Origin: Chiloscyllium plagiosum | Taxonomy: Eukaryota | Direction: 5' to 3' | Length of the DNA stretch: 62,000 nucleotides | Assembly: GCF_004010195.1 (NCBI RefSeq) | Contig: NC_057759.1 | Location: 1,743,069-1,805,068, forward strand | Part shown: positions 22,976 to 53,200 of the stretch, piece by piece | Layout: each line of letters opens with the position of its first letter | How positions within the stretch are numbered: the stretch's first letter is position 1 | Position numbers and translations under genes: made by a program | Notes under the pieces: generated by a model | What the model was told of the DNA's origin: nothing | Seen by the model: only the letters and a program-made list of their open reading frames with translations | Database searches by the model: none

Positions 22976-23877
22976 TTATGTAATGATCTGAAGAACTGAA
23001 GTAAATGAAAAACTAAACATTCTTTTCAAGTGCTTTCTGAACTTGGTCTGTGTCACTGCATAAATAAAAGTGTTTGTGCAGCAGCTCAGGAGCTGCAGCA
23101 TTGAACCCAACACCAGAACAAAGCTGGGTAGATAAATCTTCACAAGACCAAAATAGTATAATCTGTACAACATGGAATAGGCCATAAATGTTGACCATAA
23201 AAGGATGAAATTTGCAGAGAGTGCAAACATTAAAATAATAGATTTCCTTCGACTTGCCATCTCTGGATCTTTAAAACTTACACCACTGCTCTGGGCCCGG
23301 AGTCTTCTCCGTGCTCGGCTTGTTCTGATAATGTGTCTGACAGTGAAAATATTCAGCAGCAGAATCAGGATGAAAGGAATACAGGGTGTTCCAATGTGAT
23401 GAAGAAGCTCAATCAACATCCATAAATGTGAGTTCAAATTGGTGACTGATATAACACAAAATGCAACGATGTTCGACAAAGTATATTGATCTCCTAACAT
23501 AAAATACCAGAAAATGTTCTTTAGGCAACTCACAGCAATCACTATTCCCAGCACCACAGCTGAGGTTTTCTCAGTGCAATATTTATGTTTCATCTTCTGA
23601 CAACAAATTGCCACAAATCGATCAAAAGTAAAAGCCACAGTGAACCAGACAGAACAATCAATGGCTGCATAATTCAGGACTGCATGAATATTGCACACAC
23701 GAATTAAATATCTTAGATAAAAGATTTCTTCAAAGAAAGGTCGTGGAATATGTCTCAGTATTACATCCAGGATAATAACCAAAAGGTCTGCCACTGCCAT
23801 GGCCACCAAGTATCGAGAAACACATTTGGAGAGACCACATTTTCCCAGAGATAGGATCCCAATCGCTATGACATTAA
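22976..23877 (-). CDS. Class A orphan GPCR, GPR139/GPR142-like (chondrichthyan-expanded type), coding exon 2
   Basis: Acceptor cacacag| at 23878; open frame VNVIAIGILSLGKCGLSKCVSRYLVAMAVADLL...FTFDRFVAICC...LLSCCTNTFIYAVTQTKFR to TAA; covers the end of TM1 through TM7. Confidence 0.93.
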
Positions 23878-24423
23878 CTGTGTGCAGGGGATATTATCAA
23901 GGAAATTAGTCTGCAAGCAAAATCATCATATAATAGTTGTACATATACAGGTTAGTTAATGTGTTGCTGCATTCAACTGATTTTAACTGACACAATGTAT
24001 CACATTATTGATCTTGAGACATGGCTGGTCATTCATTTGAAGTCATACTTAAACGAAATTAAATATCAGTGATGAAATGCCGTGTATTAGCTTGGATAAG
24101 CGCCCATCTCCGTTAGTTGGTTGGGCTTCCAGAGATGAATCTCGTCATCCAAATAATGTTGTATACTGACATCAAAGCAAGACTGGATTAAGATAGAACA
24201 AAGGTGACATGACGCAACGCATCCTTAAGTGGTATATTCTGTTCTGTTCCTCTTGCAGAGTGGTGTTGCCACAATGGTGGCAAAATGTCTCCATCAGACA
24301 GTCAGTTGATAAACAGCTTTGGATACCCGTGATTTTTTTTTTGACGTAAGACAGAAGTATCATGCTTGCATGTGGTCAGACCAGCACATGCCAAAAAGCA
24401 ATTTCGGCTATGCTTTCAGTTAG

Positions 24424-25052
24424 GAGGCGAAAGTGAGGACTGCAGATGCTGTAGATCAGAGCTGAAAATGTGTTGCTGGAAAAGTGCAGCAGGTCGGGCA
24501 GCATCCAAGGAACAGGAGAATCGACGTTTCGGGCATAAGCCCTACTTCAGGAATGAGGAAAGTGTGTCCAGCAGGCTAAGATAAAAGGTAGGGAGGAGGG
24601 ACTTGGGGGAGGGGCGTTGGAAATGCGATAGGTGGAGGGAGGTCAAGGTGAGGGTGATAGGCCAGAGTGGGGTGGGGACGGAGAGGTCAGGAAGAAGATT
24701 GAAGGGGAGTCCAAGGACTGCATCTCCTTGGTGGAGTGGGAGGGGTGTTGGGTTGGTTGGTCCGGATGTCCCAGAGGTGTTCTCTGAAACGTTCCGCAAG
24801 TAGGCGGCCTGTCTCGCCAATATAGAGGAGGCCACATCGGGTGCAGCGGATGCAATAGATGATGTGTGTGGAGGTGCAGGTGAATTTGTGGGGGATATGG
24901 AAGGATCCCTTGGGCCCCTGGAGGGAAGTAAGGGGGGGCGGTGTGGGCGCAAGTTTTGCATTTCTTGCGGTTGCAGGGGAAGGTGCCGGGAGTGGAGGTT
25001 GGGTTGATGGGGGGTGTGGACCTGACCAGAGAGTCACGGAGGGAGTGGTCTT
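24424..25052 (-). mobile_element. 5'-truncated Penelope-like element (GIY-YIG end + pseudo-LTR) in the GPCR intron
   Basis: FTCTSTHIIYCIRCTRCGLLYIGETGRLLAERFREH; 13-bp TSD tgctttcagttag at 24411-24423 and 25053-25065. Confidence 0.93.
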
Positions 25053-25917
25053 TGCTTTCAGTTAGAAAAGCAGTTAGATGGTGGGCTTACTGGTTGCAGG
25101 AGCTTAAAGTGGAGGTCTCTGCTGCTACAACGAACAGACAGCAAGTGACAATATTAACTATTTCACGGAATTGTTTTTTTGTCCGAAGTGTGTATTTGTG
25201 GGGATATGCCACAATTGGAACAGTCGATGATTAGTGCTTAAAGAATACATTGACATGTTATTTAATTTAATAAGTTGGTGTTATGTCAATTCTTCGTTTA
25301 GATGTATTTTGACCGTGTTTTAACAATATATTGAGTTTCGATTAAAGCGAAGTGATGGACCAAACAAATCATATCTAAAAGTCAATGCCTTACACTGCCT
25401 TTTGAAAGTGTTAAAGTGAGGGCCATTGCTAACTCCATAATAAACTTTGGGTGTGGGGGAATCTGGTCTGGTCCACATTAGTGATGTAGACATTAAATGC
25501 AGGGAATTTACTGAAACACAATCTGGAAAACAGCGTGGACATCGAGAAAGGAAGGACACGGAGACTGCAAAGCAGTTAGATGGGGGTATCCGAACAAGTC
25601 CATAACCAGTTTCAAGAAGTGGAGAAACAAAGAGTATAACAGCTGTATAACGTCTATTTACAGAGCATGTGCACTTTTCACAACTTATACCAAAACAGTC
25701 AATGATTTCTGTGATATTGAATGGTTCCAAATACAGAAGAGAGAGCAAGAGAGTCAGGACCTGAGCGTTCCTTTTCTAAATTAATCAATGTATTATTGTC
25801 GTATGTACCGAGAAACAGAGAAAAGTGTTTGCTATTCTGGCGGTTCATACCATACAAGGTGCATCAGAGTAGCAGACCAATGTACGGAATGTAGTGTTAC
25901 AGAGGCAGAGAAGATGT

Positions 25918-28270: not shown

Positions 28271-28749
28271 AGAGAGAGATGTGTTTATGGGCAACGGGGC
28301 ACTGGCATCGTGCATCATGTGTTTATGGGCAACGGTGCACTGGCAGAGGAAGTAAGTGCACGCATGCTGCAATCACAACTCTTTTGGTCTGCCCCGGGGT
28401 AAAAAGAGCACAGAAGTGATTAGAGATTGGCAGCGAGTGCGAGAGCAAGTAAAAATGCTTTTAGTTAAAGAGCAGCAACAGAGGAAGTTGGCAGGGTGGA
28501 CAGGGAAATGAAAGTGAAGGACAACAGGCCTAAGTGGTGGTAAAGAAGGCAAGCTGACAACAGTGAATCATGTTTAACAGATCTATGAAGCAGTTACAAG
28601 AAAAATGTTAAATAACCTGTATTCACGTGTACACAGTGTAGACAATTGCCCCAAGAACAGGCGCATCAACAAGGATGGCACCATAAATGGCAAGGTGAGT
28701 TAATATGTTGAGCATTACTTACAAAACACATTATGAGGCACAGACTTAC

Positions 28750-28972
28750 CAGGGACACCAACAATGCCAAGCATGGGATAGTAAATATAGGCAAAAATCC
28801 GAAGTGTGGCCTCGATTCGATCTGTTGACTTGATCCAATCATTGCCACTGTTAAGAAGGTAAAGCCAGCCAGAGAAACCCCTTCCCATCACTGTATTATT
28901 CAAATCATTTTCCTTCTGATTGTCACTAACTGCAATGATATTCTGCTCCATTGTTCTCGATAATCTCTCCAT
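28750..28972 (-). CDS. GPR139/142-like GPCR, coding exon 1
   Basis: MERLSRTMEQN...IFAYIYYPMLGIVGVP-G|gtaagt is a perfect phase-1 donor that joins exon 2 in frame (374 aa; 392 aa if the ATG at 29026 is used); TATTAAA on - at ~29053-29059. Confidence 0.85.
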
Positions 28973-30279
28973 ATCTGTGGCTGTGCTGATTACAGGTTTC
29001 TGCAAGGACATTGCACCTACTGTCATTCTGTGACAAGCAATTGAATGGAATCCTTTAATAAGTAGTCAAAGCTGCCCACATCTCCCCAAAAGGCACAATT
29101 AATTTCAATTAGTCATACATTAATTCCAGTTAATGAACAAACAATTGCAGTTAACCTCTTTAAATCAAATAAGCTTTGCACCACAATATATTAGAATGTT
29201 GACATGTTTCACTGAGAGTCTTACAGCGACAAAGTATGGAGAAAATAATTCAATAAACTATGAAGTTTATTTGCATAATTATACAGACGTACTTGCATAG
29301 GATTAAAGAGTTGCACATTTTGTCTGTGTAACAAAAAATGAAGGCCAGATTTAACTCTGCAGAGATGAGCCACCTGACATCAATGATGATGAACATTAGA
29401 AAGAATATAACCATCCTGGATAAATAATTGCAAAATCATATTTTATTTATGCGATATTCTTCGAAATCTTGAATATAATCCATCACTACTGAGCCAACCC
29501 TTTATCAATGATATCTGTGCCGCTGCCCCTCGTCCATTTCATCGCCATTATCTATACCAGAACCAATCATTATCGAAGTTGTCACTCTTGAGCACCATCT
29601 TTCGCAACTACGCCAATTGTCTTCCATCACCACCTCTCTGTCATCTGAACCAGACCCACCTACAATGGAGAGGCATCTCTCACCATTACACCCACCTCAT
29701 CAATGTTGCCACAGTGTCCAAAGGTGATTCCCTTTGTCAGATTCATTAGGACGAAAGATTAAAGTTTCAGAATTTGTTATCATTCATTTAAAACAGAGAT
29801 GTGACGATTACATTATCTCAATGAGCTGTTAATCTGCGGAATTCTTCACGTTAGAGGCTGATAAAGCTTGTTCATTAACTGTGTTCAAGAAACGTACAGA
29901 TTGCTTTTTGATCAATCAGGAATTCAAGCTTCAAGACGAATATGTAGTGAAGTGGAATTGAATATCAGTAGATAAGCCATGATACCATTTAATTATGGAG
30001 CAGACTTTTTGGATTGATGCTCCTCCTTTTGCTCACATGCCTTATGGCCTTCACGAACTTAAGTTGTGCTGCCCAAAGCCTGCTGTTTAGAGTATTCTCA
30101 GTTGTGTCTGAGTGGTGTAGAAGAGCTAATGATTTCTGAGGAACAAATTGAGCAGGAACTCAAAGTGAAAGAGCCCAGAACAAGGTTAAAAATGAGACAA
30201 TGAGACAATGGGAGTGAAGAACTTACGATACAGGTATGGAAAGATCAAATGTTGCATCAAGCAGTCTTTGTTGAACACA

Positions 30280-30454
30280 TGATTTGGAGGTGCAGGTGTT
30301 GGACCAGGGTGTACAAAGTTAAAAATCACACAATATCAGGTTATAGTCCAACAGGTTTAATGGGAGCAAACACCTGATGAAGGAACAGAGCTCCGAAAGC
30401 GAGTGTTTCTATTTAAACCTGTTGGATTAGAACCTGGTGTTGTGTGATTTTTAA
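30280..30454 (+). mobile_element. PLE-derived hairpin element with hammerhead-like core
   Basis: 14-bp TSD ctttgttgaacaca (30266-30279, 30455-30468); inverted arms acaaagttaaaaatcacaca.../...tgtgtgatttttaactttgt; CAC-CUGAUGA...GAAAG-CGA-GUG at ~30371-30405. Confidence 0.8.
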
Positions 30455-30785
30455 CTTTGTTGAACACAGCTAGTCTTTATTCAGAGAGAGCGACTGTGGC
30501 GACTGTTTCCCTTCCTGACCGCCCGGTGCCACTGTGAGCTAATCTCTGTTCCTGCTAGTGTCACTCTATCCTGTCCATTCCCTTGTCAATCCGTTGTCCA
30601 ATGCCCCTAATGGCGGCGAGTATGTGAGTGTGACATCACTATTATTTTACATTTTTATCAAAACTGCGGATCGCTGAAGAAAGGGCCCTTCCACACAGAA
30701 AGCAGATGGAGCGTACGAGAAGACCAGGACTAAACATCTAAAATAACAGAGGAGCTGCGGAATAGCCGAGAAAACGCCAGACCCT

Positions 30786-31139: not shown

Positions 31140-33590
31140 GTGCATAGAACGTTACAGCGCAGTAGAGTACCTTCGACCCTCGACTTTGTGCCAACCTCTG
31201 AAACCAATCTGAAGTGCAACTAACCTACTTTATTCCATTTCCGTCCTATTTTATTCCAATCCGTTGTCCAATGACCATGTAAATACCCTTAAAGTCGGCG
31301 AGTCTGCTATTGTTGCAGGCAGGGCATTCCACGCACCTACTACCCTCACAGTAAAGTAACTGTCGCTGACCACTCTCCTATATCTAAAACCCCTCAATTG
31401 AAATCTATGCCCCCTCATGCTAGCCAAACACAACTGCGGAAGCAGGCTTCCAATTTCCACCTCATCCTCTGATTATCTTATATGTTTCTATTAAATCACC
31501 ACTCAACCTTCGTCTCTCCTCAAAAACAGCCTCCAGTCCCTCAGCCTTTCCTCATAAGGCTTTCCTTCCATAGCAGGCAACATCCTAGAAAATCTCCTCT
31601 GAACCCTTCCCAAGCTTCCACATCGTTCTTATAATGTGGTGACCAGAACTGTACACAATACTCCAAGTGCGGCCAGATAAGAGTATTGTACAGTTGTCGC
31701 ATGGCCTCATGGTTCTGAAACACAATCCCTCTGCTAATAAAGGTTAACACACCACATGCCTTCTTAACAATCGTATCAATCTGGGTGGCAATTTTCACGG
31801 ATCTCTGTACACTAAGACCTCTCTATTCATTTACACTAACAAGAATCTACCCATTAGCCCAGTATTCTGCATTCCTGATGCTCCTTACAAGGTGAAACAC
31901 TTCACAACTTTTCTGTTTTAAACTGTATCTGCCATCTCTCAGCCCAGCTCTGCAGCTTATCTATGTTCCTCTATAACCTAAAACATCCTTCTGAACTGTG
32001 CACAACTTACCGACGTTTATGTTATGCGGAAATTTACGAACGCATCCTTTTCTGCCAAAAGCCAAGTTGTTTATACAAATGACAAACAGCAGTGGGCCCA
32101 AAACAGATCCTTGTGGTATACCACTAGCAACTGAACTCCAGGATGAACATTTTCCCATCAACCACCATCTTCAGTCTTATTACAGCTAACCAATTTCTCA
32201 TCGAAACCGCTAAGATTCCCACAATCCCATGCCTCCATATTTTCTGCAATAACCTCCTGTGGGCAACCTTACCAAACGCCTTTCTGAAATCCATGTACAC
32301 CACATCAACCGCTTTATCCTCATCCACTTGTTTGGTCACCTTCTCAAAGAACTCAATAAAGTTTGTGAGGCACGACTTATCCTTCACACAACTGCATTGA
32401 TTATCCCGAATCAACCAATTCCTTTCTAGATGATCCTTAATTGTATATTTTCGAATATTTTCTAAAACTTTACCCACAACTGAAGTAAGGCTCACTGCTC
32501 TATAATTGGCAGGGTTGTCTCTACTCCCCTTCTTCAACAAAGGAACAACATTTGCTATCCTCCAGTCTCGTGGCACTATTCCTATAGACAATGACGAAAA
32601 CAAGATCAAAGCCAAAGACTCGGCAACCTCATCCCTGGCTTCCCATGGAATCCTAAATTAAATCCCATCCGGCTCAATGGACTTATTTCCTTTTACACTT
32701 TCCAGAAATGCTAACACCTCCTGTTGTGAACCTCAATCCCATCTGGTCTACTAGCCTGTATCTCAATATTCTCATTGACAACATTCTCTTTTTCTAGTGT
32801 GAATACCGACGAAAAATATTTATTTAACGCTTCCCCTATCTGCTCTGACTCGATGAACAACTTCCCACGACTGTCCTTGATTGGTCCTAATCTTACTTTA
32901 TTCATTATTTTATTCCTAATATACTTAGAGAAAGCCTTAGTGTTTTCCATGATCCTGTCCGCCAACGAATCCGCATATGCCTTCCTGGCTCTTCTTAACT
33001 CTCTCTTTCAGCCTTTCCGAGCTAACCGGTGAATCTGAAGCTCCCGAATTTAGCCTTCACATCTTATCCTAACGTAAACTGGCTTCCTTCTCTCGACAAG
33101 TGATTCAACATCTTTCGTAAACCACGGCTCCTGCACTAAAAAAACTTCCTCCCTGCCTGTCAGGTACACAATTATCAAAGACCCGCAGTAGCTGTTCCTT
33201 GAATAAGCTCCACGTTTCAATTGGAACAGTCCCTTGAAGTTTCCTTCCCCATCCTATGCATCTAAAATCTTGCCTAATCTCATCGTAATTTCCTTTCCCT
33301 CAGCTATAACTCTTGCCTGTAGTATATACCTATCCCTTCCCTAAACCCATGTAAACACAACCGAATTGTGGTCGCTATAATCGAAGTGCTCACCTACCTC
33401 CAAATTTAACCCTGGCCGTGTTCATTACCCAATACTTATCCTATCGTGGTCTCGTCCCTTGTTGGCCTGTCTACATACTGTATGAGGAAACCCTCATGCA
33501 TACATTGCTCAAAAACTGACTGATCTAAAGTGCTTTACCTATAGTATTCCAAGTAAATATTTGGAAAGCTTAAGACCCCCACTAGTTCCT
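31140..33590 (-). mobile_element. CR1 LINE (endonuclease end, RT, 3' end)
   Basis: PRDWRIANVVPLLKKG, VDVVYMDFRKAF, SGIPQGSVLGPLLF and HLEYCVQFWSPH motifs. Confidence 0.95.
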
Positions 33591-33675
33591 CTTTCAGCTC
33601 ACTCTGCTGGGCACTGTCATAATGATACAAAACAAAAAAGAAAGAAAATCTCAATTACACGTGCATAAAAGCTTT

Positions 33676-33917
33676 GATTAGATTAGATTAGATTACAGTG
33701 TGGAAACAGGCCCTTCGGCCCAACAAGTCCACACCGACCCGCCGAAGCGAAACCCACCCATACCCCTACATTACCGGAGCACCCGGAGGAAACCCACGCA
33801 GACACGGGGAGAACGTGCAAACTCCACACAGTCAGTCGCCTGAGTCGGGAATTGAACCTGGGTCTCTAGCGCTGTGAGGCAGCAGTGCTAACCACTGTGC
33901 CCACCGTGCCGCCCACA
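33676..33917 (-). mobile_element. Young HE1-type V-SINE, present only in the left arm
   Basis: (gatta)n tail and tRNA head; the equivalent site in the right arm (~48035-48045) is empty. Confidence 0.9.
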
Positions 33918-34149
33918 AATTTTTATCACTTTTATCTGTCTTTGTCGAACACAGTGAATATCACACACGCACAGTTTGACCTTCAGACTGAGAACTAGGC
34001 ACAGCAGAAAGTGTAGGAGTCTGTCTCTGTGAATTTCTCCTGCGCGACTCACAATGACTGTCACACCTTCAGGCTCACAAATCCCCCATTCCCTCCAACC
34101 TCCGGAGCCCTTGCCAGTTAAATAGCATACTCCACCTGGAATGTTTCTC

Positions 34150-35100
34150 CCAGATCCTTAAATGTGTCCTCAGCCCAATCATCTTCAGTGCCTCATCAAT
34201 GACCTTCCATCCTTTATAGGGTCAGAAATGGGGATGTTCGGTAATATTTGCAAAATGTTCAGTAGTATTCTGACCTCCTGAGATACTGAAGCAGTTCATG
34301 TGAAAATACAACAGGATCTGCACAATATCCAGGCTTGGGCAGAGAAGCACCAAGTACCATTCACAACCGACAAATACTAGACTATGACAATGACCAATAG
34401 GTGCTGCGAGCACCACTCCAAACTTCCCGGTCCCACCCGACATTCAACGACGTTAACATCACTGAATCTCTACCATCAACATCCCAGGGGTTGCCATTAA
34501 CTTGAAACTGAATTTGACTCACGACATAAAAACAATGACCTCAAAAACAGGCCAGAGGCTAAAATACTGCGGTGGTTAATGAACATCTTGATCCCCAAAG
34601 CCTGTCCACAATCTACAAGGCACAAGTCAGAGGTGTGAGGGAATAGTCCCCACTTGATTGGATTGGTGCAGCTGCAACAACACTCAAGCAGCTTGACACC
34701 ATTCAGGCCATTAGATTAGCACAATATCGACAAACATACGCTCCCTTCAGCACTGATGCGCAGTAGCAGTATGTAGTAATTACGGGATGCACTGTAGAAA
34801 TTCACCAACGATCATCAGACAGGACCTTTCAATTTCACGACGACTTCTATCGAGAAGGGAATGGGCAAAAGATATCTGGGAACACCACCTCCTGAAAGTT
34901 CCCCTCCAAGCGTCTCACCAAATATGTCATCGTTCCTTCACTGTCACTTTGTTAAAATCCTGGAATTCCTTCACGAATTATATTGTGGTCCATCCACAGC
35001 AAGTAAATTGCAACTGTTCAAGAAGACAGATGATTGCCACCACCTCAAGGGAAACATTTTGGCCACACAGCCGTACTCACATCCGACAAAAGTGAATTAT
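34150..35100 (+). mobile_element. Old LINE (L2/CR1-like) 3' fragment; mirror copy at ~46830-47830 (-)
   Basis: Decayed RT C-terminus (tccacaatctacaaggcacaagtcag); related sequence at 39430-40300. Confidence 0.6.
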
Positions 35101-35910
35101 AAAAAAGAACTTGTGAGATGTCAGCATTAGGAATTAATTAGCGATAAAGTGAGAGAGAAAGAGCAATTGAAGATAGAGAAAAAACAATAACGTTTGGAGG
35201 GAAACTGGGTCATGTGACTGCAGAGAGAGACACAGGGAGATAGTGTGAGCATTAATGCCACTGTTTTCTTAATACAATCCTTGGACATGGTTCAGTAGAT
35301 GTGATCTGGAGAATGGTACATTCCTTCCACATCATCAGGATTCTTGTTTCTTCCATTCATGCCTGAACACTTGTAACAACCAAACATTTTAACAGTCAGG
35401 TTTCGAGAATGAATCAGAGCACACGAATGGAAAATCCTTCAGGGGTGAATGTTTGGTGGAGGAAACAACACAGGGAGGAGAACAGAGGCAGGGGAGGGGG
35501 AGACACAATGACATTCCACAGATCAGCTTCTCTGAAATTGGAATGTGCTGCCTGTTATCCCCCTGTTTATACTTCTGAGAGATGGTAGACGGACATGAAG
35601 TGCTGTCTGCAGACTGTGACTCGAGAAAGCTTGCTAGTTTGAAATCGATTGGGGTGACAGCATATCTGCTATTTCTGATCGTTGTCCTCTGATAACGAAG
35701 TGGTACATATTGTTTGCAATCTGAAAACAGATTTAATGAGACGGGATGTGAGCAATGTAGTGAAAAGCTTTATTCTCAATTCAAAAGCAATCAGTTAGGG
35801 CTCATTGGGATACACGAAACCAAGACGGGCCCAGAGTACGGAAACTGTAATTAGCTTCAGAAATGGCCTGAGGTGTTCCTTACCGTGGTGCGCATTTATT
35901 CCTTCACAAT

Positions 35911-37049
35911 TCATTGCGTGTAACGTATGCAACAATAGAAAAGAAGTAAGCAGCTCTCAGCCAACACCACTTCACCAGCATTACATCCTCCAATTCGGCA
36001 CACTGAACCGGATCTGAAAATGTGTTGCTGGAAAAGCGCAGCAGGTCAGGCAGCATCCAATGAACAGGAGAATCAACGTTTCGGGCATAAGTCCTTCTTC
36101 AGGCTTATGCCCGAAACGTCGATTCCCCTGCTCCTTGGATGCTGCCTGACCTGCTGCGCTTTTCCAGCAACACATTTTCAGCTCTGATCTCCAGCATCTG
36201 CAGTCCTCACTTTCTCCACACTGAACCGGATGTTTCGCAGCCGAAAGCTATAACTGGAAAACAAAGACAAACAGATCATTGATGTCCACACTTTGATGCT
36301 GCAACTTTCACCTAACCTCATGAGATTTATCCAAAAACTATATATACATATGCGTCCACTGTGATCAAGGATTGGCCATTTGTGGCTATCAGTTGACGTG
36401 GCATAATTTTAAAGGACTATCTTTAAAATAAACTAGCTTTTTTTAATTGCATAGGCAGGAAAAGCAGGGTTTGCTTAGTTGTGGGTAATGTTTACAATTG
36501 TTCGTCAAATGCTTAGTGACTGGATGGTGGGAATATCACTTGACTCGCCATCCAGGATCACCAAGCTCAGTTTCTGAAGAGCCACTAGTAATTCACACCG
36601 TGGCAGATGATGCAATTTGAATCATATTCAAATAGTCTAATGAAGGGAAGGAATACCTGCTTCACTAATTCCTTAGCAGATGGATTTCTGCCACGGGTAC
36701 CTAATCTGATCTGCATGTGACTCTCGTCTCAAAATAATGTGGTTCACATCTCAATGCCCTCTGGGATGACAAGAAAAGTTGTCTTTGCTCGTGACGCCTG
36801 TGTCCCATAAACGATTGTTGTACATATCAATTGATAAGTTTCGACACTTGCCAGCCTAAAACTAATAGAATGTAAGTCGGTCTTCAGGGGGAAAAATGAC
36901 CACAATCTGCCCTTCTGAAAATTTGTGAAGGCTGTTTGAGGAGAGATGAACTCACTTTGAAATGCAACAGTCGGTGTTTCTTCTTTATCGGCAGTGCCTT
37001 GTTGCACCATCACCAATAGCCCAAGAACTAAGAACAGGACGGTTCTCAT
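35911..37049 (-). pseudogene. Beta-defensin-like paralog disrupted by an insertion in exon 2
   Basis: Exon 1 37049-36956 (MRTVLFLVLGLLVMVQQGTADKEETPTVAFQ, |gtgagt). Exon 2 starts at 36253; the 203-bp insert gives ...GCETSGSVWRK*. The remainder CRIGGCNAGEVVLAESCLLLFYCCIRYTQ* ends at 35911. Confidence 0.88.
36014..36216. mobile_element. PLE pseudo-LTR-derived hairpin insertion
   Basis: 15-bp TSD cacactgaaccggat (35999-36013, 36217-36231); ~77-bp inverted arms ctgaaaatgtg...gggcataag / cttatgccc...cattttcag; CUGAAGA..GAAAC-GUU hammerhead-like core on - at ~36071-36103. Confidence 0.92.
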
Positions 37050-37789
37050 CCTCCATTGATTTCCTGTCGCACTAGTAGCTGCCTGGAGGATAAAGCTCCT
37101 TATACGATATCACAGACTGTACTGCGGTTAATAATTGCAAAAACAATAACATGGACATAATCAATTTCTCTTATGAGTCAATCAGTAACACACCGAGGCA
37201 CATGCAGACACAGTGTCACACATACTCCCATAACACACACTCAAACACACTGATATGGAAACACATACCGGCACCCACACAGATAGACACACACTGACAT
37301 ACACGCACAGACATGCAATGGCACACAACTTCACGCGCAAAGTCACACATGCACAGGAACACATGCACAATAACACAGGAATGTCACTCCACGTGATTTC
37401 TTATGATGTATATCTTTGATATTCAGCTCCCAATTCTAATCCCCTTGCAGCCACGTCTCAGTGATGACCGCCAGCTCATACCTGCTCATTCTGATCTGCA
37501 TCACAAGCTCGTTGACGTTATTCCTTAAACCGCGTACATTCACATACAAGACCTTTAGTTGATTACACAACCCTCTTCTCGTTGTCATTCTTTTGTCCAG
37601 CGTGCAAAGGTTTTGATTTCTAAACCTTTCAAGATACTCTGTCCTAATTGTGTCAGTGTTTAAATTTTAATAACCCCCACCATCGCCCCCACCCCCGATA
37701 TCTTTCCTCCTTTGTGATTCGGGTGTTCTAACTTTCCCCATAACTGAACACCCCCCCCCCCGCCACACACACACTTCCTAATTTACTTT

Positions 37790-39420
37790 AGAACACTGTC
37801 TGCAGTCCTAGCTGTGCGATTCACATGGACTCTTGTCTCAGAATGGTTCAGGTAAAGGCTATCGCAACAGACATGAGGCTGGGATCCAATGGACCACGCC
37901 ACATTAAGAGTGAACCAAAATGATTTTGTCAAAAACAAACATGATTGTGGAAGGATGCAGGCAGAGGCTTGCACCCAAGGCAGTACCTGAAACCACACAA
38001 ACACTGTGGGATTCCCAAACAGGCAAATGGAGACATCGATAAAGGCATTCACTGTCCAATAACTTAGTAAGTATTTGACCAGTCACCTTCGCTATGAAGT
38101 CTCCATTTGGTCAGTTAAAAATCCAGATTGGAGCCGGTGATTAACTATTCACGACAGAGAACCAAATAAAGTTATACATATGGCAGCTCCTACAGTGAGT
38201 ACGAGTCTTAAAACAATGATTAATCGAAGCGAATTAGCACAATGTTTTACATTATTAGACATCACCGTGGAGATTAGTCAATCCCATTCACGAAGGAGGG
38301 TCAGTATAAATTTGCATTACACTTTAAAGAACCGCAATCCCAGTGGACATCTTTATCACAGGAATTTCCCAATTCTCCATCAATATTTCACCAATGGGTT
38401 ACGGGATGGTTCTAGGCAGGCTCTTTGATACAATATATTGATGATTTGCTTTAACAAACAGGAACTGAACGGAGCATTACCTGTTCTTGAATGGGTTGTC
38501 ACAAATATTAAAGAAATTTGGCTTCAAAGTGAATCTGAAAATGGTTCAGATAATGATGGAGGAAGTCTGTTATTTAGGAATGGTGTTAATACCAGGCAAA
38601 AGAGAGATAGACAAACGACAGATTGGAACAATAATTAAGCCTACCCTTTCCCACAGATGTGAAGGTATATCGCGACAAACACAGCACCAATAATGACTGT
38701 TAAAGAAAAATCCCCCACGGGAATGGAAGCCAGAACACATGCAATGATAGTTTAGAAATAGGGCTTGGTGTACGCTCCTGCTCTCAAGCAGTCAAACCGA
38801 GCAGAACCACCTTCTTTGGAGGTGACTGCAACAGGCTCCACAATATTGGCAAGAGGTACATAGTCATTTGAGATGAGTAGTCTATGCTTCGCGCATATTC
38901 ACGCCAACAGAGCAGGGGGACACAACATGTGAAAGGCTTTTATTGGCAGTGTTCTGGGCTGTTCAATGTTTAACTTACATTGTAGGGTTTAATGCATTGA
39001 CAATTCTTAAAGAATACGCATCCACTCAGAATCTGCTGGATGAGCATATTAATGATGGCACAATGAGTCAAAATAGGATTGCCAGAATAATGATGCTGTT
39101 ACAAGGAAGGAACATAAAGGTACAAAGAGTTGAACATGTCATCATGTTAGCAGACACTTCAATTTGCCTGGGGACAAATCATGAATATCAGGTGCTAATA
39201 ACAAACGATCCCAAAGGGCCGTTTGCATTCAAGCAAAACTGAGGCAGTACTGGCAAAGAGAATACAGAAAATAAAATATCGCCCTTAATATTTTTGTTGA
39301 CAGCTCTTCATCTCTGCAGAATGGGCAACAGAAGACAGGTCGTGGAATGTATATAGAGAAGCTTAATAGAGTGGAATGTAGATCTTGGGTTATCGCAAAG
39401 TTTAGAGAGTGCAGAAAATT
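37790..39420 (+). mobile_element. Decayed retrovirus-like pol (RT, tether/connection, RNase H)
   Basis: IWSVKNPDWSR*LTIHDREPNKV (~38105-38175), FPNSPSIFHQ, LIQYIDDLL (YIDD 38434-38445), GFKVN..VQ..EEVCYLG, CERLLLAVFWAVQ, SQNRIAR..LLQ, then IFVDSSS..NG...TG.G at ~39290. Confidence 0.8.
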
Positions 39421-44104: not shown

Positions 44105-44420
44105 ATTGTGTGAATTGGTGTGCATATGGCTGTGTGACTGTGTGTGTGTGGTTGTCGACGTGCGGACTTGTGTGTCTATGAGACCCGTGTGTTACTATGT
44201 GTGAGAGAGGGAGTGTGTATGTCTGTGTTTGGTAACTGTGCGTGTGTGTGTGTCTGTGTCTGTATGTACGTGTGAATGTGTGTGTGTGTGGGTCTGTGTC
44301 TCTGTGTACGTGTGTATGTGCATGAATGGCTGTGTTATTGTGCATGTGTTACTGTGCATGTGTAACTTTGGCGTGGTGTGTGCCATTGCATGTCTGTGTG
44401 TAAATGTCAGTGTGTTTTGA
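44105..44420. repeat. Degenerate (TG)n-rich tract
   Basis: Directly visible; the inner boundary of the inverted duplication (44330) lies inside it. Confidence 0.9.
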
Positions 44421-44561
44421 AAAATGTGGGTGCCGGTATGTGTTTCCAAATCAATGTGTTTGAGTGTGTGTTATCTGAGTATGTGTGACACTGTGTCTGC
44501 ATGAGTCTGGGTGTGTTACTGATTGTCTCATAAGAGAAATTGATTATGTCCATGTTATTGT

Positions 44562-44646
44562 TTTTGCAATTATTAACCTCAGTACAGTCTGTGATATCGT
44601 ATAAGGAGCTTTCATCCTCCAGGCAGCTACTAGTGCGACAGGAAAT
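44562..44646 (+). promoter_or_regulatory. Proximal promoter of the defensin-like gene
   Basis: TTTTGCAAT (C/EBP-like) at 44562, AACCTCA (RUNX-like; AACCGCA in the paralog) at 44575, TATAAG at 44600, CAGGAAAT (ETS-like) at 44639; retained in both arms. Confidence 0.45.
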
Positions 44647-44655
44647 CAATGGAGG

Positions 44656-44749
44656 ATGAGAACTGTCCTGTTCTTAGTTCTTGGGCTGTTGGTGATGGTG
44701 CAACCAGGCACTGCCGATAAAGAAGAAACACCGACTGTTGCATTTCAAA
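44656..44749 (+). CDS. Beta-defensin-like precursor, exon 1 (signal peptide + acidic propiece)
   Basis: ATG in aggATGa context; MRTVLFLVLGLLVMVQPGTA-DKEETPTVAFQ; perfect phase-1 donor |gtgagt at 44750. Confidence 0.88.
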
Positions 44750-45491
44750 GTGAGTTCATCTCTCCTCAAACAGCCTTCACAAATTTTCAGAAGGGCAGAT
44801 TGTGGTCATTCTTCCCCTGAAGACCGACTTACATTCTATTAGTTTTAGGCTGGCAAGTGCCGAAACTTATCAATTGATATGTACAATAATCGTTTATGGG
44901 ACACAGGCGTCACTAGCAAAGACAACTTTTCTTGTCATCCCAGAGGGCATTGAGATGTAAACCACATTATTTTGAGCCGAGAGTCACATGTAAATCAAAT
45001 TAGGTAACCACAGCAGAAATCCATCCGCTAAGGAATTAGTGAAGCAGGTATTCCTTCCCTTCATTAGACTATTTGAATATGATTCAAATTGCATCATCTG
45101 CCACGGTGTGAATTACTAGTGGCTCTTCAGAAACTGAGCTTGGTGGTCCTGGATGGCGAGTCAAGCGATATTCCCACCATCCAGTCACTAAGCATTTGAT
45201 GAACAATTGTAAACATTACCCACAACTAAGCAAACCCTGCTTTTCCCGCCTTTGCAATAACAAAAAACGCTAGCTCATTTTAAAGATAGTCCGTTAAGAT
45301 TATGCCACGTCAACTGATAGCCACAAATGGCCAATCCTTGATCACAGTGGACGCAGGTACTCACGTGAGAATGTATTGTTGTCATTTATATATATATATA
45401 TATATAGTTTTTGGATAAATGTCATGAGGTTAGGCGAAAGTTGCATCATCAAAGTGTGGACATCAATGATCTGCTTGTCTTTGTTTTCCAG

Positions 45492-45616
45492 TTATAGCTT
45501 TCGGCTGCGAAACATCCGGTTCAGTGTGCCGAATTGGAGGATGTAATGCTGGTGAGGAGGTGTTGGCTGAGAGCTGCTTACTTCTTTTTCATTGTTGCAT
45601 ACGTTACACGCAATGA
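45492..45616 (+). CDS. Beta-defensin-like precursor, exon 2 (mature six-cysteine peptide)
   Basis: Acceptor tctttgttttccag|; in frame with exon 1: IIAFGCETSGSVCRIGGCNAGEEVLAESCLLLFHCCIRYTQ*; C-x6-C-x4-C-x10-C-x5-CC; AATAAA at 45626 and 45750. Confidence 0.9.
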
Positions 45617-48129
45617 TTGTGAAAGAATAAATATGCACCGCGGCAAAGAACACCTCAGGCCATTTCTGAAGCTAATTAGTTTCCGTACTCTGGGTCCGTC
45701 CTGGTTTCGTGTATTCCCATGAGCCCTAACTGATTGCTTTTGAATTGTGAATAAAGCTTTTCACTACATTGCTCACATCCCGTCTTATTTAATCTGTTTT
45801 CAGATTGCAATCAATATGTACCACTTCGTTATCAGAGGACAACGGTCAGAAATAGCAGATATGCTGTCACCCCAATCGGTTTCCAACCATCAAGCTTCCC
45901 AGAGTCACAGTTTGCAGCCAGCACTTCATGTCCGTCTACCATCTCTCAGAAGTATAAACAGGGAGATAACAGGCAGCACCTTCCAAAAACCACGGTCACT
46001 TCCACCTGGAATGACAAAGGTACAGCTATATAAGAATTGAATAGAAATGAATTGAATTAGGTTTATTTTCACATTTACTCACGAGTTGAAAAGTTAAACA
46101 TTACATTTCTTCTTAATAAAATGTACAAAATCAAAGAGATTGGCACCAGTTTCTTGCAAAACCCCGCTCCAAGCTGCTCCCAATCCTGATTTGCAAGTAT
46201 ATTGACTGTTCCGTCACTGAAGCATGGTCAAGCTCCTGCAATTCCATCCCTGATTGTTTCTTGAGGATCCCTCTGCAAAACAGAGAAGGATTTTCCATCT
46301 TTTTAAGGACGTACGTAGGGATGGGCAACAATTGCTGGCCCACCCACGTCTTATGAAGGAAAAGCAACGAAGGCTTAGTGAAGACAGTGGAGCAGCGATT
46401 TCAGAGAAGCTGATCTGTGGAATGTCATTGTGTCTCCCCCTCCCCTGCCTCTGTTCTCCTCCCTGGGTTGTTTCCTCCACCAAACATTCACCCCTGAAAG
46501 ATTTTCCGTTCTTGTGCTCTGATTCACTCTCGAAACCTGACTGTTAAAATGTTTGGTTGTTACAAGTGTTCAGGCATGAATGGAAGAAACAAGAATCCTG
46601 ATGATGTGGAAGGAATGTACCATTCTCCAGCTTACATTTACAGAACTACGTCCAAGGATTGTATTAAGAAAACAGTGGCATTAATGCTCACACTATCTCC
46701 CTGTGTCTCTCTCTGCAGTCACATGACCCAGTTTCCCTCCAAATGTTATTGTTTTTTCTCTATCTTCACCGATTCTTTCCCTCTCACTTAATCGCTAATT
46801 AATTCCTAATGCTGACATCTCACAAGTTCTTTTTTATAATTCACTTTTGTCGGATGTGAGTACGGCTGTGTGGCCAAACTTTATCACGCATACCTGGTTG
46901 ACCTTGAGATGGTGGCAATCATCTGCCTTCTTGAACGGCTGCAATTTACTTGCTATGGATGAACAACAATGTCATTCGTGAAGAATTCCTGGATTTTAAC
47001 AAAGTGACAGTGAAGGAACGATGGCATATTTGGTGAGACGCTTGGAGGGGAACTTTCAGGAGGTGGTGTTCCCAGATATCTTTTGCCCATTCCCTTCTCG
47101 ATAGAAGTCGTCCTGAAATGGAAAGGTCCTGTCTGATGATCGTTTGTGAATTTCTGAAGTGCATCCCGTAATTACTACATACTGCTACTGCGCATCAGTG
47201 CTGAAGGGAGCGTATGTTTGTCGATATTGTGCTAATCTAATGTCCTGAATGGTGTCAAGCTGCTTGAGTATTTTTGTAGCTGCACCAATCCAATCAAATG
47301 GAGACTATTCCCTCACACTTCTGACTTGTTCCTTGTAGATTGTGGACAGGCTTTGGGGATCAAGATGTGCATTAATCGCCGCAGTATTTTAGCATCTGAA
47401 CTGTTATTATGGTCATTGCTTTTATGTCGTGAGTCAAATTCAGCTTCAAGTTAATGGCAACCCCTAGGATGTTGATGGTAGGGATTCAGTGAAGTTAACT
47501 TCGTTGAATGTCGGGTAGGACCGGGGAGGTTGGCGTGGTGCTGGCAGGTCGATTATTTCCTATTGGTCATTGTCATAGCCTAGTATTTGTCGGTTGTGAA
47601 TGGTACTTTGTACTTCTATGCCCAAGCCTGGATATTGTGCAGATCTTGTTGCATTTGCACATGATCTGCTTCAGTATCTGAGGAGGTATGAATACTGCTG
47701 AACATTTTGCAAATATCAGCGAATATCCCCACCTCTGACCCTATAATGGATGGAAGGTCATTAATGAGGCACGGAAGATGATCGGACTGAGGACACTATG
47801 AAAGATCTAGGAGAAATATTCCAGGTGGGGTATTCTATTAAACTGGCAAGGGCTCCAGAGGTTGGAAGAAATGGGGGGGTTGTGAGCCTGAAGGTGTGAC
47901 GGTCATTGTGAGTCGCGCAGGAGAAATTCACAGAGACAGACTCCTACACTTTCTGCTGTGCCGAGTTCTCAGTATGGAGGTCAAACTATGCGTGTGTGAT
48001 ATTCACTGTGTTCTACAAAGACCGATAAAAGTGATAAAAGCTTTTATGCACGCGTGATTGTGATTTTTTTCTTTTTTGTTTTGTATCATTATGACAGTGC
48101 CCAGCAGAGTGAGCTGAAAGAGGAACTAG

Positions 48130-50196
48130 TGGGGGTCTTAAGCTTTCCAAATATTTGCTGGGAATACTATAGATAAAGCACTTTAGATCAGTCAGTTTTT
48201 GTCCAATGTATGCATGAGGGTTTCCTCATACAGTATGTAGACAGGCCAACAAGGGACAAGACCACGATAGGAAAAGTATTGGGTAATGAACACGGCCAGG
48301 GTTAAATTTGGAGGTAGGTGAGCACTTTGGTTATAGCGACCATAATTCGGTTGTGTTTACATGGGTGATGGGTAGGGGTAGGTATATACTACAGGCAAGA
48401 GTTATAGCTGAGGGAAAGGAAATTATGATGCGATTAGGCAAGATTTTAGATGCATAGGATGGGGAAGGAAACTGCAAGGGACTGTTCCAATTGAAACGTG
48501 GAGCTTATTCAAGGAACAGCTACTGCGGGTCCTTGATAATTATGTACCTGACAGGCAGGGAGGAAGATTTTGAGCGCAGGTGCCGTGGTTTACAAGGCTG
48601 TTGAATCTCTTGTCAAGAGTAGGAAGGCAGTTTACGGTAGGATAAGATGTGAAGGCTCAATTAAGGAACTTCGAGGAGAAAGTGAGAACTGCAGATGCTT
48701 GGAGATCAGAGCTGAAAATGTGTTGCTGGAAAAGCGCAGCAGGTCAGGCAGCATCCAAGGAGCAGGAGAATCGACGTTTCGGGCATGATCCCTTCTTTGT
48801 CGATTCTCCTCCTCCTTGGATGCTGCCTGACCTGCTGCGCTTTTCCAGCAACACATTTTCAGCTCAATTAAGGAACTTCAAACTTACCAGTTAGCCAGGA
48901 AAGGCTGAAAGAGAGAGTTAAGAAGTGCCAGGAAGGCATGTGAGGATTCGTTGGCAGATAGGATCATAGAAAACACTAAGGCTTTCTCTAAGCGTATGAG
49001 GAATAAAATAATGAATAAAGTAAGTTTAGGGCCAATAAAGGACGGTCGTGGGAATTGTTCATCGAGTCAGAGCAGATAGGGGAAGCGCTAAATGAATTTT
49101 TTTCGTCGGGATTCACTCTAGAAAAAGAGAATGTTGTCGATGAGAATACTGAGATACAGGCTTGTAGACCAGATGGGATTGAGGTTCACAACAGGAGGTG
49201 TTAGCATTTCTGGAAAGTGTAAAAGGAAATAAGTCCATTGAGCCGGATGAGATATATCCTAGGATTCATTGGGAATCCAGGGAGAAGATTGCTGAGTCTT
49301 TGGCTTTGATCTTGTTTTCGTCATTGTCTATAGGAATAGTGCCACGAGACTGGAGGATAGCAAATGTTGTTCTTTTGTTGAAGAAGGGGAATAGACACAA
49401 CCCTGCCAATTATAGAGCGGTGAGCTTTACTTCAGTTGTGGGTAAAGTGTTCGAAAACATTCGAAAATATACAAATGAGAATCATCTAGAAAGGAATTGG
49501 TTGATTCGGGATAGTCAACAAAGTTGTGTGAAGGATAGGTCGTGCCCCACACACCTTATTGCCTTCTTTGAGAACGTGACCAAACAAGTGGATGAGGATA
49601 AAGCGGTTGATGTGGTGTACATGGATTTAAGTAAGGCGTTTGATAAGGTTCCCCACAGCAGGTTAATGCAGAAAATATGGAGGCATGGGATTGTGAGAAT
49701 TTTAGCTGTTTGGATCAGAAATTGGTTAGCTATAATAAAACTGAGGATGATGGTTGATGGAAAAATGTTCACCCTGGTGTTCAGTTGCTAGTGGTCTACC
49801 ACAAGGATCTGTTTTGGGCCCACTGCTGTTTGTCATTTGTATAAATAATATGGCTTATGGCAGAAAAAGATGCGTTCGTAAATTTCCGGATAACATTAAG
49901 GTCGGTAAGTTGTGCACAGTGCAGCAGGATGTTTTCAATTACACAGGAACATAGATAAGCTGCAGAGCTGGGCTGAGAGATGGCAGATACAGTTTAACAC
50001 AGAAAAGTGTGAAGTGATTCACCTTGGAAGGAGCAACAGGAATGCAGAGTACTGGGCTAATGGGTAGATTCTTGTTAGTGTAAATGAGTAGAGAGGTCTC
50101 GGTGTCCATGTACAGATATCCATGAAAGTTGCCACCCAGGTTGATACGATTGTTAAGAAGGCATATTATGTGTTAATTTTTATTAGCAGAGGGATT
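48130..50196 (+). mobile_element. CR1 LINE (duplicate of the 31724-33590 segment)
   Basis: PRDWRIANVV, VDVVYMDLSKAFDKVPH, GLPQGSVLGPLLF; shares private changes (IRKYT, HLERNWLIRD) with the left copy. Confidence 0.95.
48673..48861. mobile_element. PLE pseudo-LTR-derived hairpin insertion, right arm only
   Basis: 18-bp TSD gctcaattaaggaacttc (48655-48672, 48862-48879); same family as 36014-36216; empty site at ~33035-33055. Confidence 0.92.
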
Positions 50197-50199
50197 CCA

Positions 50200-52860
50200 T
50201 GGCATTTCCTGATTATGGCAGAGTGCACATGGCAGAGGTTGTGGGTTTTCTCTATTAGTAAGAAATAAAATTAAATCAGTTGTAAGAAGTGAAGTCGTGT
50301 CAGTTGATATAGAATCTGTGTAGGCAGAATTGAGGAACCGCAAAGGTTAAAAAAAGTCATAGTTGTAGTTATGTATAGCTCTCAGAATAGTAGTTAGGAG
50401 CTGAGGCTCAAGATATACCAGAAGTTAGAAGAGCCGTGTAGAAAAGGTAAAGTTACAGTGATCGTGGGGGAGTTAAATATATTGGTGTACTAGGAAAATC
50501 ACGGAGTTATTGAATTGCAAGAAAAGGAATTTGTGGAATGGCGAAGAGATTTTTTTGGAGCAGCTTGTGCTGGAGCAGGCAAGATTGAATTTAGAATTGT
50601 GCAATGATATGGCAGCTTAAGGTCAAGGAACCCTTTGGAGGCAGTGGTTACAATATGATCGAATTTGCTCTGCAATTTGAGAGATAGAGAGGATGTAATT
50701 AGAGGTAATGGTATTACAACTGACTAAAGGCAACTACAGAGGCATGAGGGAGAAGCTGTGTAGAATTGACAGGAAAAGGAACTTAGCTGTAAAGACAGTG
50801 AAACAGCAATGGCAGGATTTTCTGCGAGTAATATAGGAGATACAGCAGGGATGCATCCCTAAGGAAAGGAAACATGGCAGATGGAGGATGAGGCAATCAC
50901 GGCTGACTAAGGTAGTCAATGATAGCCTAAAACCAAAAGAGAACGCATATAATGTGGCAAAGGAGAGTGGGAAACCAGAGATTGGGAATCTTACAAAGAC
51001 CAACAGAGGGCACCAAAAAACGAAACAAAGAGGGGGACGATTAAATATGTGGGTTAAATAAAAAAGAAGGCTGTAAGTGATTCTTTAGACATATAAAGGG
51101 CAAAAGAGATGCAAATTCGACACTACGGCGCTGGAAAATGACACTGTAGAGATAGTAGTGGGAAACAAAGAAATGGTTAAGGAACTGAATAATTACTCCA
51201 CATCAGTCTTCACGGTGGAAGAGACGAGTAATACCCCCCAAAAAAACAAACGAGTGAGGGGGCAAGTTGAGTATCGTGGCCAACAACAAGGAAAGAGTGC
51301 TAGAAAATCTGAAGGATTTGCTGGTGGATAAATCTTCTGGATCAGATATGTTGCCGCCAAGAGTTCCCAGGGAGACAGCTGAAAAGCTAATGGAGGCAGT
51401 AGTGGTGATCTTTCAAGAATTGCTAGAATCAGGAAGGGTTCCAGAGGGCTGGAAAATCGCGAAAGTGACATCCCTGTTTAGGAAGTGGGTAAGGGAAAAG
51501 ACCGACCATTAAAGACCGATTAGCCTCACCTCAATTGTGGCTAATATCCTGGAATCCATTGTGAAGGATGAAATTTCTGAAAATGTGAAAGCTTAAGGTA
51601 AAATGGGGCAAAGTAAGCATGGTATCATTAAGGGGAAGTCTTGCCTGGTCTTCTAGAATTCTTTGAGGAAGTAACAAGCAGATAAGACAAAGGAAAGCCA
51701 ATGGATGTCATTTAATAGTATTCAAGAAGGCTTTGGACAAGATTTCGCACAGAAGACTACTGAGTGTCAGAGAGCCATTGGTATAAGAGGCAAGGTGCTA
51801 GCATGGCTGTAAGCTTGGCTGTCTGGATGAAAACAGAAATTGGGGCATGGATGGTGTTATTCGGAATATCAGCGGGTGAGCAGTGGTGTTGTGCAAAGTT
51901 CAATGTTCAGACTACAACTTTCCACTTCATACATTAATTATCTAGATGAAGGAACTGAAGATATTCTGGCTTCGTTTGCAAAGGATACAAAGACAGGTAA
52001 AGTGACCCGTAACATTGAGGAGGAGGAGACAAGTTTGGACAACAATTTTGACAAGTTAGCAGAGTGCGTAAAGTGGCTGATGTAGTACAAGGTGGGAAAC
52101 TGTGAAGTTGTGTACTTTGATAGGAAGAATAGATGCATGCTCTATTTTCTAAATGGCGAGATAATTCAGAAGCTTAAATTATAAAAAGATGTGGTAGTTC
52201 TCGTCCAGGATTCTCTCAACATAAACTTGCAGATTGAGTCAGTAGTTAGGAAGGCAAATGTAATGATGGCATTTAATTTGTGAGGAGTTCAACATAAAAG
52301 CAGGGATTAACTTCAGAGGCCCTATAATGCTCTGGTAGGACCGAATTTGGAGTATTGTGCGCAGTATAAGACCATATCTCACAATGGATGTACTGGCCTT
52401 GGAGTATGTACAGAGGAGAATGGTCCCAGTAATGAAGAGCTTAACGGAAAAGAATAATGTTTGAGGACTCTGAATCTATAATTGACGGAGTTTAGAAAGA
52501 TGTTGGGGAAACTAATGTACAGAATGTCTGGACAGATTGGATGCTGTGAATATGTTTCTACTGATAGCAGAGGCTAGGACTCAGGACACAGCCTTATAGT
52601 AAAGGGAACTTATTTTAGAATGGGGATATGGTGAAACTGCTTCAACCAGAGAAAGGTGAACCGATGGAATTCATTGCCACAGAAGGCTGTGGAGGCCAGG
52701 TGATTGAGTATATTTAAGACTGATAGATCTTCAATATCAAGGGAATCAAGGGGTGTAGGGAGAAAGGGGGAGAATGGGATTGAGAAATTTATCAGCCATG
52801 ATTGAAAGGTGGAGAAGACTTGATGGACCTAATTTCTGCTCCTATGTCTTAGTCTATTGG
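50200..52860 (+). mobile_element. CR1 LINE, different and more decayed subfamily
   Basis: DKSSGSDMLPPRV, IFQELLESGRVPEGWKIA, SSGVVQ and FAKDTK remnants plus a 3'UTR. Confidence 0.85.
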
Positions 52861-52864
52861 TCTT

Positions 52865-53200
52865 AACTGACAAGGTCTTTTCTTGGCGTAGGGGAGCCCA
52901 AAACTATTACGCATAAATTTAAGATGAGAGGAGAAAGATTCAAAAGGGGCCGAAGGGTAAACATTTTCACGCAAAGTTTAGTCCTTGATTGGAATGAGCT
53001 TGCAAAGGAAGTGGTGGAGACTGGTGAAATTGCAACATATAAAAGGTACCTGGACGAATATATGAATAGGAAGGGTTTAGAGCAATATGTGTTAAATGCT
53101 TGCAAATGTGACAAGATTTATTTAGACTACCTGGTCGGCATGATTAAGCTGGGTGGAATGGTCCATTTCCGTGCTCTCCATCTTTATGACTGTATGATTC
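52865..53200 (+). mobile_element. CR1 3' end
   Basis: RGERFK...FTQ..V..WNEL..EVVE.G.IATYKRYLDEYM. Confidence 0.85.

Follow-up and report, generated by a model that had tools for sequence, protein, structure and literature searches.

The stretch of DNA analysed here (62,000 nt in all, hereafter the window) contains two copies of a two-exon gene encoding a beta-defensin-like peptide, both of which lie inside an inverted segmental duplication with a block size of ~6 kb. The right copy is intact, with a coding length of 219 nt including the stop codon. The left copy, read from the minus strand, carries a hairpin insert in its second exon. The layout of the duplication and of the two genes is as follows, with the basis of each entry in brackets.

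31724..37378, minus strand: left arm of the inverted segmental duplication (self-comparison of the window)
44330..50196, plus strand: right arm of the inverted segmental duplication (self-comparison of the window)
44656-44749 and 45492-45616, plus strand: exons of the intact beta-defensin-like gene, 72 amino acids, cysteine spacing 6-4-10-5-0 (gene model)
37050..37140, minus strand: TATA-like box (TATAAG near 37103) and 5' leader of the left copy (alignment to the right copy)
37049, minus strand: ATG start codon of the left copy (gene model)
36956..37049, minus strand: exon 1 coding part of the left copy, a hydrophobic leader and short acidic pro-piece, ending in phase 1 (3/94 nt differ from the right copy)
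36254..36955, minus strand: intron of the left copy, GT...AG intact (30/701 aligned sites differ from the right intron)
36232..36253, minus strand: start of exon 2 of the left copy, which runs from 36253 and holds the Cys1 codon (gene model)
35911..35998, minus strand: remaining exon 2 coding part of the left copy, with the remainder of Cys2, Cys3-Cys6 and the stop codon (gene model)
35769..35910, minus strand: 3' UTR of the left copy, with AATAAA twice, at 35900 and 35774 (sequence; contig 18 of run X2 identical over 35746-35877)

The duplicated gene pair

When the insert is set aside, the two copies differ at seven of 219 coding nucleotides, a recount that agrees with the initial annotation of this DNA. 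The differences at codons 3, 11, 53 and 64 are synonymous and the others alter the peptide (P17Q, E54V and H65Y). As that annotation also stated, the six cysteine codons (37, 44, 49, 60, 66 and 67) are kept in both copies and the left copy retains its splice sites and polyA signals; its promoter likewise survives. The donor 9-mers of the two copies are the same, the AATAAA signals of the right copy are found at 45626 and 45750, and the 91 nt aligned 5' of the left ATG show just one mismatch and one gap.

The cysteine spacing of the intact copy fits the beta-defensin motif C-X4-6-C-X3-5-C-X9-10-C-X5-6-CC given in the available text of PMC3161384, and a relaxed form of this pattern produces a single unbroken match in the six frames of the window, within which no further defensin copies were found. 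Likeness to vertebrate beta-defensins, as far as these are described in the accessible parts of PMC3161384, PMC8231796 and PMC7203481, extends to the hydrophobic leader, the phase-1 intron and a mammal-like arrangement of two coding exons. In a simple hydropathy scan, the 9-residue values reach 3.3 in the first windows and are negative from window 14 onwards. The exon 1 coding part of 94 nt places a phase-1 intron directly before the cysteine exon, a family feature according to the available portion of PMC7203481.

There are also differences from vertebrate beta-defensins. The gene product is net acidic, with three lysine plus arginine residues against six aspartate plus glutamate in residues 22-72. 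The typical beta-defensin motif has a glycine two residues before Cys4, and this residue is absent here. Teleost genes have three exons rather than two, in the parts of these sources that were accessible; an anionic fish beta-defensin is reported in the accessible part of PMC8698591. Pfam returned no family match for the peptide, and searches for homologues with the 40 amino acid exon-2 peptide found none, such a short query making for a weak search. Among PDB sequences there were three weak matches, the best being alpha-defensin 4 (E 0.35), whilst the top three clusters in the ESM Atlas were beta-defensins (best 0.85, 180 shared features), a result rated as a lead only. The single-sequence structure model, built without an alignment (mean pLDDT 69, pTM 0.42), has two strands and a helix, which is not the expected beta-defensin fold of three strands with Cys1-5, 2-4 and 3-6 bonds, and Foldseek with this model gave no matches at E 0.001 and 16 weak, unrelated rows. 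The defensin label of the initial annotation thus stands on cysteine spacing, leader and intron phase, and did not gain confirmation from profile or fold searches. On these sequence features the gene is beta-defensin-like and, with fairly high probability, a true beta-defensin.

Contig sets from four of 24 runs were aligned, to the left gene only. None of the 24 is listed as an RNA data set, which carries no information on expression. In run X2 (organism A, study P2), contig 19 and the left copy disagree at 21/220 nt, whereas 14 differences and three gap letters would be expected of the right copy, and other contigs of this run carry letters present in neither copy; the defensin-like family therefore has more members, or divergent alleles, elsewhere. 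These further distinct contigs bear out the multi-copy family that lay behind the earlier idea of defensin birth and death at this locus.

The arms of the duplication differ overall by 4-8%, with private insertions in each. Flank divergence is 293/4143 (7.1%) and intron divergence 30/701 (4.3%), the intron (36254-36955 versus 44750-45491) being more alike than the flanks (P 0.005). The closer intron and the near-identical 91 nt before the ATG suggest gene conversion or constraint, either of which would blur dating, since the intron differs less than the flanks. The left arm alone carries a SINE-like insert with a GATTA repeat (33679-33920), and two stretches, of 411 nt (45987-46397) and 39 nt (45355-45393), are private to the right arm. 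Between the arms, the 7-kb spacer holds a retroelement RNase H remnant (38877-39239; Pfam RT_RNaseH, E 7.7e-07). Elsewhere in the window are an old inverted repeat (52121-54913, about 66% over 747 columns), a rhodopsin-family receptor frame on the minus strand (22979-23893, Pfam 7tm_1, E 4.3e-16, with a probable first exon upstream at 28718-29065) and a plus-strand open frame (8241-8672), possibly an exon of an immune receptor, in which an immunoglobulin domain is weakly indicated (Ig_2, E 0.38).

The hairpin insert and its relatives

The insert and two further copies of its family are made up as follows.

36217..36231, no strand: target-site duplication, first copy in gene direction (exact 15-bp repeat)
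36182..36216, plus strand: 35-nt Penelope 'tail', on one arm only (arm alignment)
36102..36181, plus strand: hairpin arm 1, a 5'-truncated pseudo-LTR piece that begins within hammerhead helix II (arm alignment)
36014..36101, minus strand: hairpin arm 2, a pseudo-LTR piece in inverted orientation that lacks the tail and whose minimal-hammerhead core is damaged (arm alignment, pattern scan)
35999..36013, no strand: target-site duplication, second copy in gene direction (exact 15-bp repeat)
24411..25065, minus strand: 5'-truncated family copy with a GIY-YIG remnant, a pseudo-LTR with hammerhead-like core, and a tail (Pfam, alignment)
48655..48879, plus strand: another hairpin of this family, inserted independently into the right arm (target duplication of 18 bp, at 48655 and 48862)

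The initial annotation described a 203-nt insert framed by a perfect 15-bp direct repeat, and this proved correct: extension of the repeat to 16 bp fails. It had also placed the insert at the Cys2 codon, and the last base of the second repeat copy does indeed begin that codon. The two arms meet at a 2-nt overlap and differ from each other at 4/78 sites (5/80 counting the junction). The predicted fold is very stable at -171.4 kcal/mol (z -19.6), none of 200 shuffled sequences being equally stable.

The target-site duplication originally described is thus borne out, and a Penelope origin, as originally proposed, is well supported by the tail, the inverted arms and the family copy at 24411-25065. 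This copy is 95.6% identical to the insert over 113 nt, has its own 13-bp target duplication (24411, 25053) and links the stub family to Penelope-like elements because it joins on to a GIY-YIG remnant (Pfam E 5.7e-05; 23.8 bits against a cut-off of 22.6), a domain that is not in the insert itself. Penelope insertions typically have a truncated copy in inverted orientation next to them, and a tail of 30-40 bp at one end, according to the available text of Craig et al. (2021, PMC8557442). The insert resembles the endonuclease-bearing elements of Penelope/Poseidon type, as described in the parts of the literature accessible here, in its truncated inverted pair and one-sided 35-nt tail, and in the GIY-YIG nuclease of the copy linked to its family, so that its layout is of a kind already published. 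It differs from them in that its copies are pared down to 80-115 nt, leaving a 203-nt hairpin with no coding part, and in lying in a protein-coding exon at a target that, unlike that of the anole element in the same sources, is not AT-rich.

The second hairpin lies in the right arm of the duplication. Its empty site is found in the left arm (33037-33054), the 18-bp duplication differing from it at 4/18 positions, and its own arms differ at 1/64. With this hairpin in the right arm and its empty site in the left, each arm of the duplication has received one hit since the duplication. Decayed relatives of 2 kb lie at 14275-16311 and 55500-57523; they are 66% alike and each adjoins a pseudo-LTR match, and they are likely, judging from their sequence, to be older Penelope bodies, although none of four frames from them, examined for a Penelope-type reverse transcriptase, matched Pfam. 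A further hairpin at 30313-30460 is 75% self-complementary; its core, CTGATGA...GAAA, is hammerhead-like although its sequence is distinct, and it likely represents a second, older Penelope family.

Outside the window the family is very abundant. Contigs matching the left-gene stretch number 58,635 (X2), 47,120 (X11) and 84,339 (X19), with their depth, which was not taken as copy number, concentrated on the insert. Loose contig ends fall at 36217 in 882 (X2), 1391 (X11) and 943 (X19) cases, pointing to a fixed family end, and in three runs between 185 and 228 loose ends before 36102 read CATTCCTGATGAAG, the full hammerhead core of the family.

Minimal hammerhead motifs in metazoan Penelope-like elements are described in the available text of Cervera and de la Pena (2014, PMC4209133). 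The family copies resemble these in having CUGANGA, one extra base, a short helix II, GAAA and a palindromic minimal helix III. A pattern scan found minimal cores on the minus strand at 36102, 24550 and 14349, each of them damaged. Within the insert, one arm differs from the published motifs in lacking the CUGANGA part, and the other in having a helix II mismatch, a GUU cleavage triplet and no partner for helix I, as well as being locked in the stem. An active ribozyme within the insert was considered and rejected, the core being both damaged and paired in the long stem; hammerhead activity is thus unlikely. Rfam gave no gathering-score matches in the window and no hammerhead at 24400-24650 (three chance matches), and a tRNA scan of the window was empty.

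Assembly of the insert and fate of the left copy

Inverted Penelope structures hamper short-read assembly, according to the accessible portion of PMC8557442, and the initial annotation had itself raised the possibility that the insert or the whole left arm is an artefact. Run X2 makes this unlikely. Its contig 18 matches the left arm at 132/132 nt, where the right copy would give five differences and two gap letters, and its contig 20 spans the flank and the adjoining 24 nt of the insert, a length below the 31-nt bridging rule. Contigs 19 and 21 of the same run end at 36013. The flank letters of contig 20 are, however, right-type (11 differences and one gap, the right copy predicting ten and one), so that it could be a chimera of the assembly graph, formed where 42 nucleotides before the junction are identical. 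It is also the single junction seen: neither the other junction (36216/36217) nor left-type letters at 37000 and 37041 occur among the X2 rows listed, which amount to 40 of 245 letter rows, 15 of 300 joints and 32 of about 194,500 pieces, and X2 may be related to the assembly. Against an artefact stand the left-exact contig and the junction contig, the clean 15-bp target duplication, and arms that are 4-8% divergent with private insertions in each, and we regard such an explanation as most improbable. Runs X9 and X10 are small data sets, each with about a third of the gene's words. X9 was considered as an RNA run and rejected, its contigs being right-type, of depth below 6, and extending at one side into the intron and at the other past the TATA-like box in the upstream direction; it covers the exon-2 region and promoter side only, with no splice joint in the rows listed.

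If the insert is retained in the mRNA, the reading frame of the left copy is disabled: translation reads SGSVWRK and stops at codon 47, the product originally reported. The claim that the gene had been killed is likely but not proven, an in-frame splice-out being possible on sequence through splice-like ends of the insert that the initial annotation did not mention. In the gene direction the tail contains, in addition to the stop codon, a donor-like AAA|GTGAGG (intron base 1 would be 36210), and arm 2 offers a branch-like CTGAC (A at 36046) and AG sites ending at 36028 and 36014. Removal of 36210-36014 as a new 197-nt intron would leave a net gain of 21 nt, in frame, and a predicted product of 79 amino acids with all six cysteines spaced 13-4-10-5-0, seven residues having been gained between Cys1 and Cys2. 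In favour of such an intron, the donor 9-mer shares 8/9 positions with the exon-1 donor of the gene and is not part of the long stem, TTTTCAG forms the very end of the insert, the expression signals are all kept and amino-acid change is low.

Several observations nonetheless weigh against the left copy having been rescued in this way. A rival AG lies 14 nt upstream, with a better pyrimidine tract (12 versus 9 of 15) and 18 nt past the branch-like A, and use of either this AG or that at 36003 would shift the frame, so that two of three splice-outs modelled from the donor at 36210 are frameshifted. The branch-like site and both internal AG regions have a mean unpaired probability of 0.00. In-frame geometry is a one in three chance, and the donor and acceptor are traits of the family, the same geometry being found in the non-genic hairpin (48682-48862). 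The Cys1-Cys2 spacing of 13 falls outside the 4-6 of the motif in the available text of PMC3161384, and the resulting middle exon would be 43 nt only. A joint corresponding to this splice does not occur among the 15 of 300 contig joints listed. We therefore consider a new intron quite unlikely. Splicing of exon 1 to a separate AG at 36002 on the minus strand, inside the target-site duplication, would keep the frame and yield a product with five cysteines, Cys1 being lost.

Introners (Gozashti et al. 2025, PMC12130899; reviewed in PMC11282704), to the extent covered by the accessible text of these papers, provide a parallel, being short non-autonomous inserts with inverted repeats, a target-site duplication and GT/AG near their ends. 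Splice signals of this type, with a donor-like site 7 nt inside one end and YAG at the other, are present in both hairpins of the window. The word Penelope is absent from the main text of either paper, as far as that text was available, and a search of titles and the starts of abstracts found no paper on Penelope-derived intron gain by spliced insertion. Recent intron gain is thought rare in vertebrates, according to the available part of PMC12130899. Were splice-out to be true here, tail-first Penelope hairpins with built-in donor and acceptor would be an unrecognised source of new introns in a vertebrate lineage, and would be so family-wide, because every tail-first hairpin has the donor in its antisense tail and the acceptor at its tail-less end.

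A further possibility is that transcripts of the left copy have a role of their own, as RNA or through a short peptide. Stop codons in a last exon allow escape from junction-dependent decay. Since the stop codon here is in the final exon, its mRNA may be spared in this way; promoter, intron and polyA signals are intact and the hairpin is very stable, and its 80 bp of double strand may serve editing or small RNAs, or a secreted one-cysteine stub may form. Hairpins of this family are common, however, with two in the window, and nothing marks the insert as selected, making such a role very unlikely. Loss of the left gene is the likely outcome.

Age of the insertion and proposed history

The initial annotation took the insertion to be recent and possibly still polymorphic, and this part of its account was not supported, given that the arm divergence of 4/78 is close to that of the duplicated block (4.3-7.1%). 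The 95% interval for arm divergence, computed for 4/80, is about 1.4-12%, indistinguishable from the intron or flank values, and at least 4/80 differences would be seen with P 0.0007 if the true divergence were 0.5%. Rates derived from the available part of PMC9826928 would, purely by way of illustration, convert 4/78 into 24 (fastest) or 160 (slowest) million years, with lower bounds of 6.6 and 44. Dating of this kind assumes that the arms were alike at birth; two template RNAs could make them differ from the start.

The coding differences are equivocal, and their low number of amino-acid changes, like the survival of the promoter, splice sites, cysteine codons and polyA signals, counts against a dead copy. 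There are three amino-acid changes in about 165 sites against four silent changes in about 51; were both copies evolving neutrally at the rate of the flanks, so few amino-acid changes would have P 0.003. If the left copy alone were neutral, 3.5-5.8 amino-acid changes would be expected against the three observed (P 0.17 at the flank rate, 0.53 at the intron rate). Even for an insertion as old as the duplication itself, the two 15-bp target-site copies would still be identical with P 0.33-0.52. As neither the perfect repeat nor the three amino-acid changes are improbable at that age, an old death is compatible with both. Three of the seven coding differences (P17Q, H65Y and one silent change) are visible among 40 of the 245 letter rows, and the outgroup contigs covering them carry the right-copy letter in all three, indicating that these changes arose on the left lineage.

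For a very recent insertion, with an empty and working left allele still segregating, one can point to the perfection of the 15-bp duplication, the low number of amino-acid changes, the second hairpin's arms, which differ at just 1/64, and the chance that the 4/78 differences in the insert came from two different templates. Close family members are also plentiful, 8,314/58,635 X2 contigs being at least 99% alike; contigs this similar are, however, also plentiful in the other two organisms (3,854/47,120 and 11,107/84,339), and family likeness is therefore no sign of youth. The number of differences between the arms, the expectation for the repeat given above and the presence of an insert-junction contig in a sample of study P2 all speak against recency. 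The contigs showed no left-type empty allele of the kind that the initial annotation proposed to look for, with the proviso that contigs cannot show absence. Two contigs of run X19 contain the empty site, and no junction contig for organisms B and C appears among 32 of about 194,500 pieces, the contigs of these organisms being mixed paralogs that are 100/1266 and 114/1417 nt off the left copy. A fresh insertion is, on balance, unlikely but deserves more weight than the other alternatives. The left copy is most likely an old dead paralog, fixed or common, rather than a fresh polymorphism.

Taken together, these results suggest the following history, which as a whole we consider reasonably probable. 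A ~6-kb block with the two-exon beta-defensin-like gene was duplicated in inverted orientation, as the two arms show, and later a Penelope-like retroelement entered exon 2 of the left copy, generating the 15-bp target-site duplication and leaving behind two short inverted pseudo-LTR ends, one with a 35-nt tail and one without. Both strands are cleaved and extended in vitro, and two reverse-transcription start sites bound the tail, in the accessible text of Frangieh et al. (2024, PMC11167929). Viewed alongside the insert junction, these properties suggest that reverse transcription was primed from both strands of a staggered cut, at the two start sites of the element, and that both copies stopped early and joined at the 2-nt overlap. 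The insert would then be kept in the mRNA, its splice-like 3' signals being paired, and translation would end at codon 47, giving a product that has a single cysteine and lacks the defensin fold and leaving the left copy as a dead paralog, most likely old and fixed or common.

That a transposon should insert into a duplicated gene for an immune peptide is an event of a familiar kind. A literature search for similar cases found no close one. Nor did a search of titles and the starts of abstracts, with most subscription papers falling outside it, find any paper on cartilaginous-fish genes of the present type, and the family is apparently little described. The locus suggests a beta-defensin-like family, multi-copy and acidic, in an animal that looks from its repeat types like a cartilaginous fish, and the insert can be read as a neat genomic footprint of two-strand Penelope priming. 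The dead paralog would itself be a clean but ordinary case of a transposon costing an immune-peptide family one of its genes.
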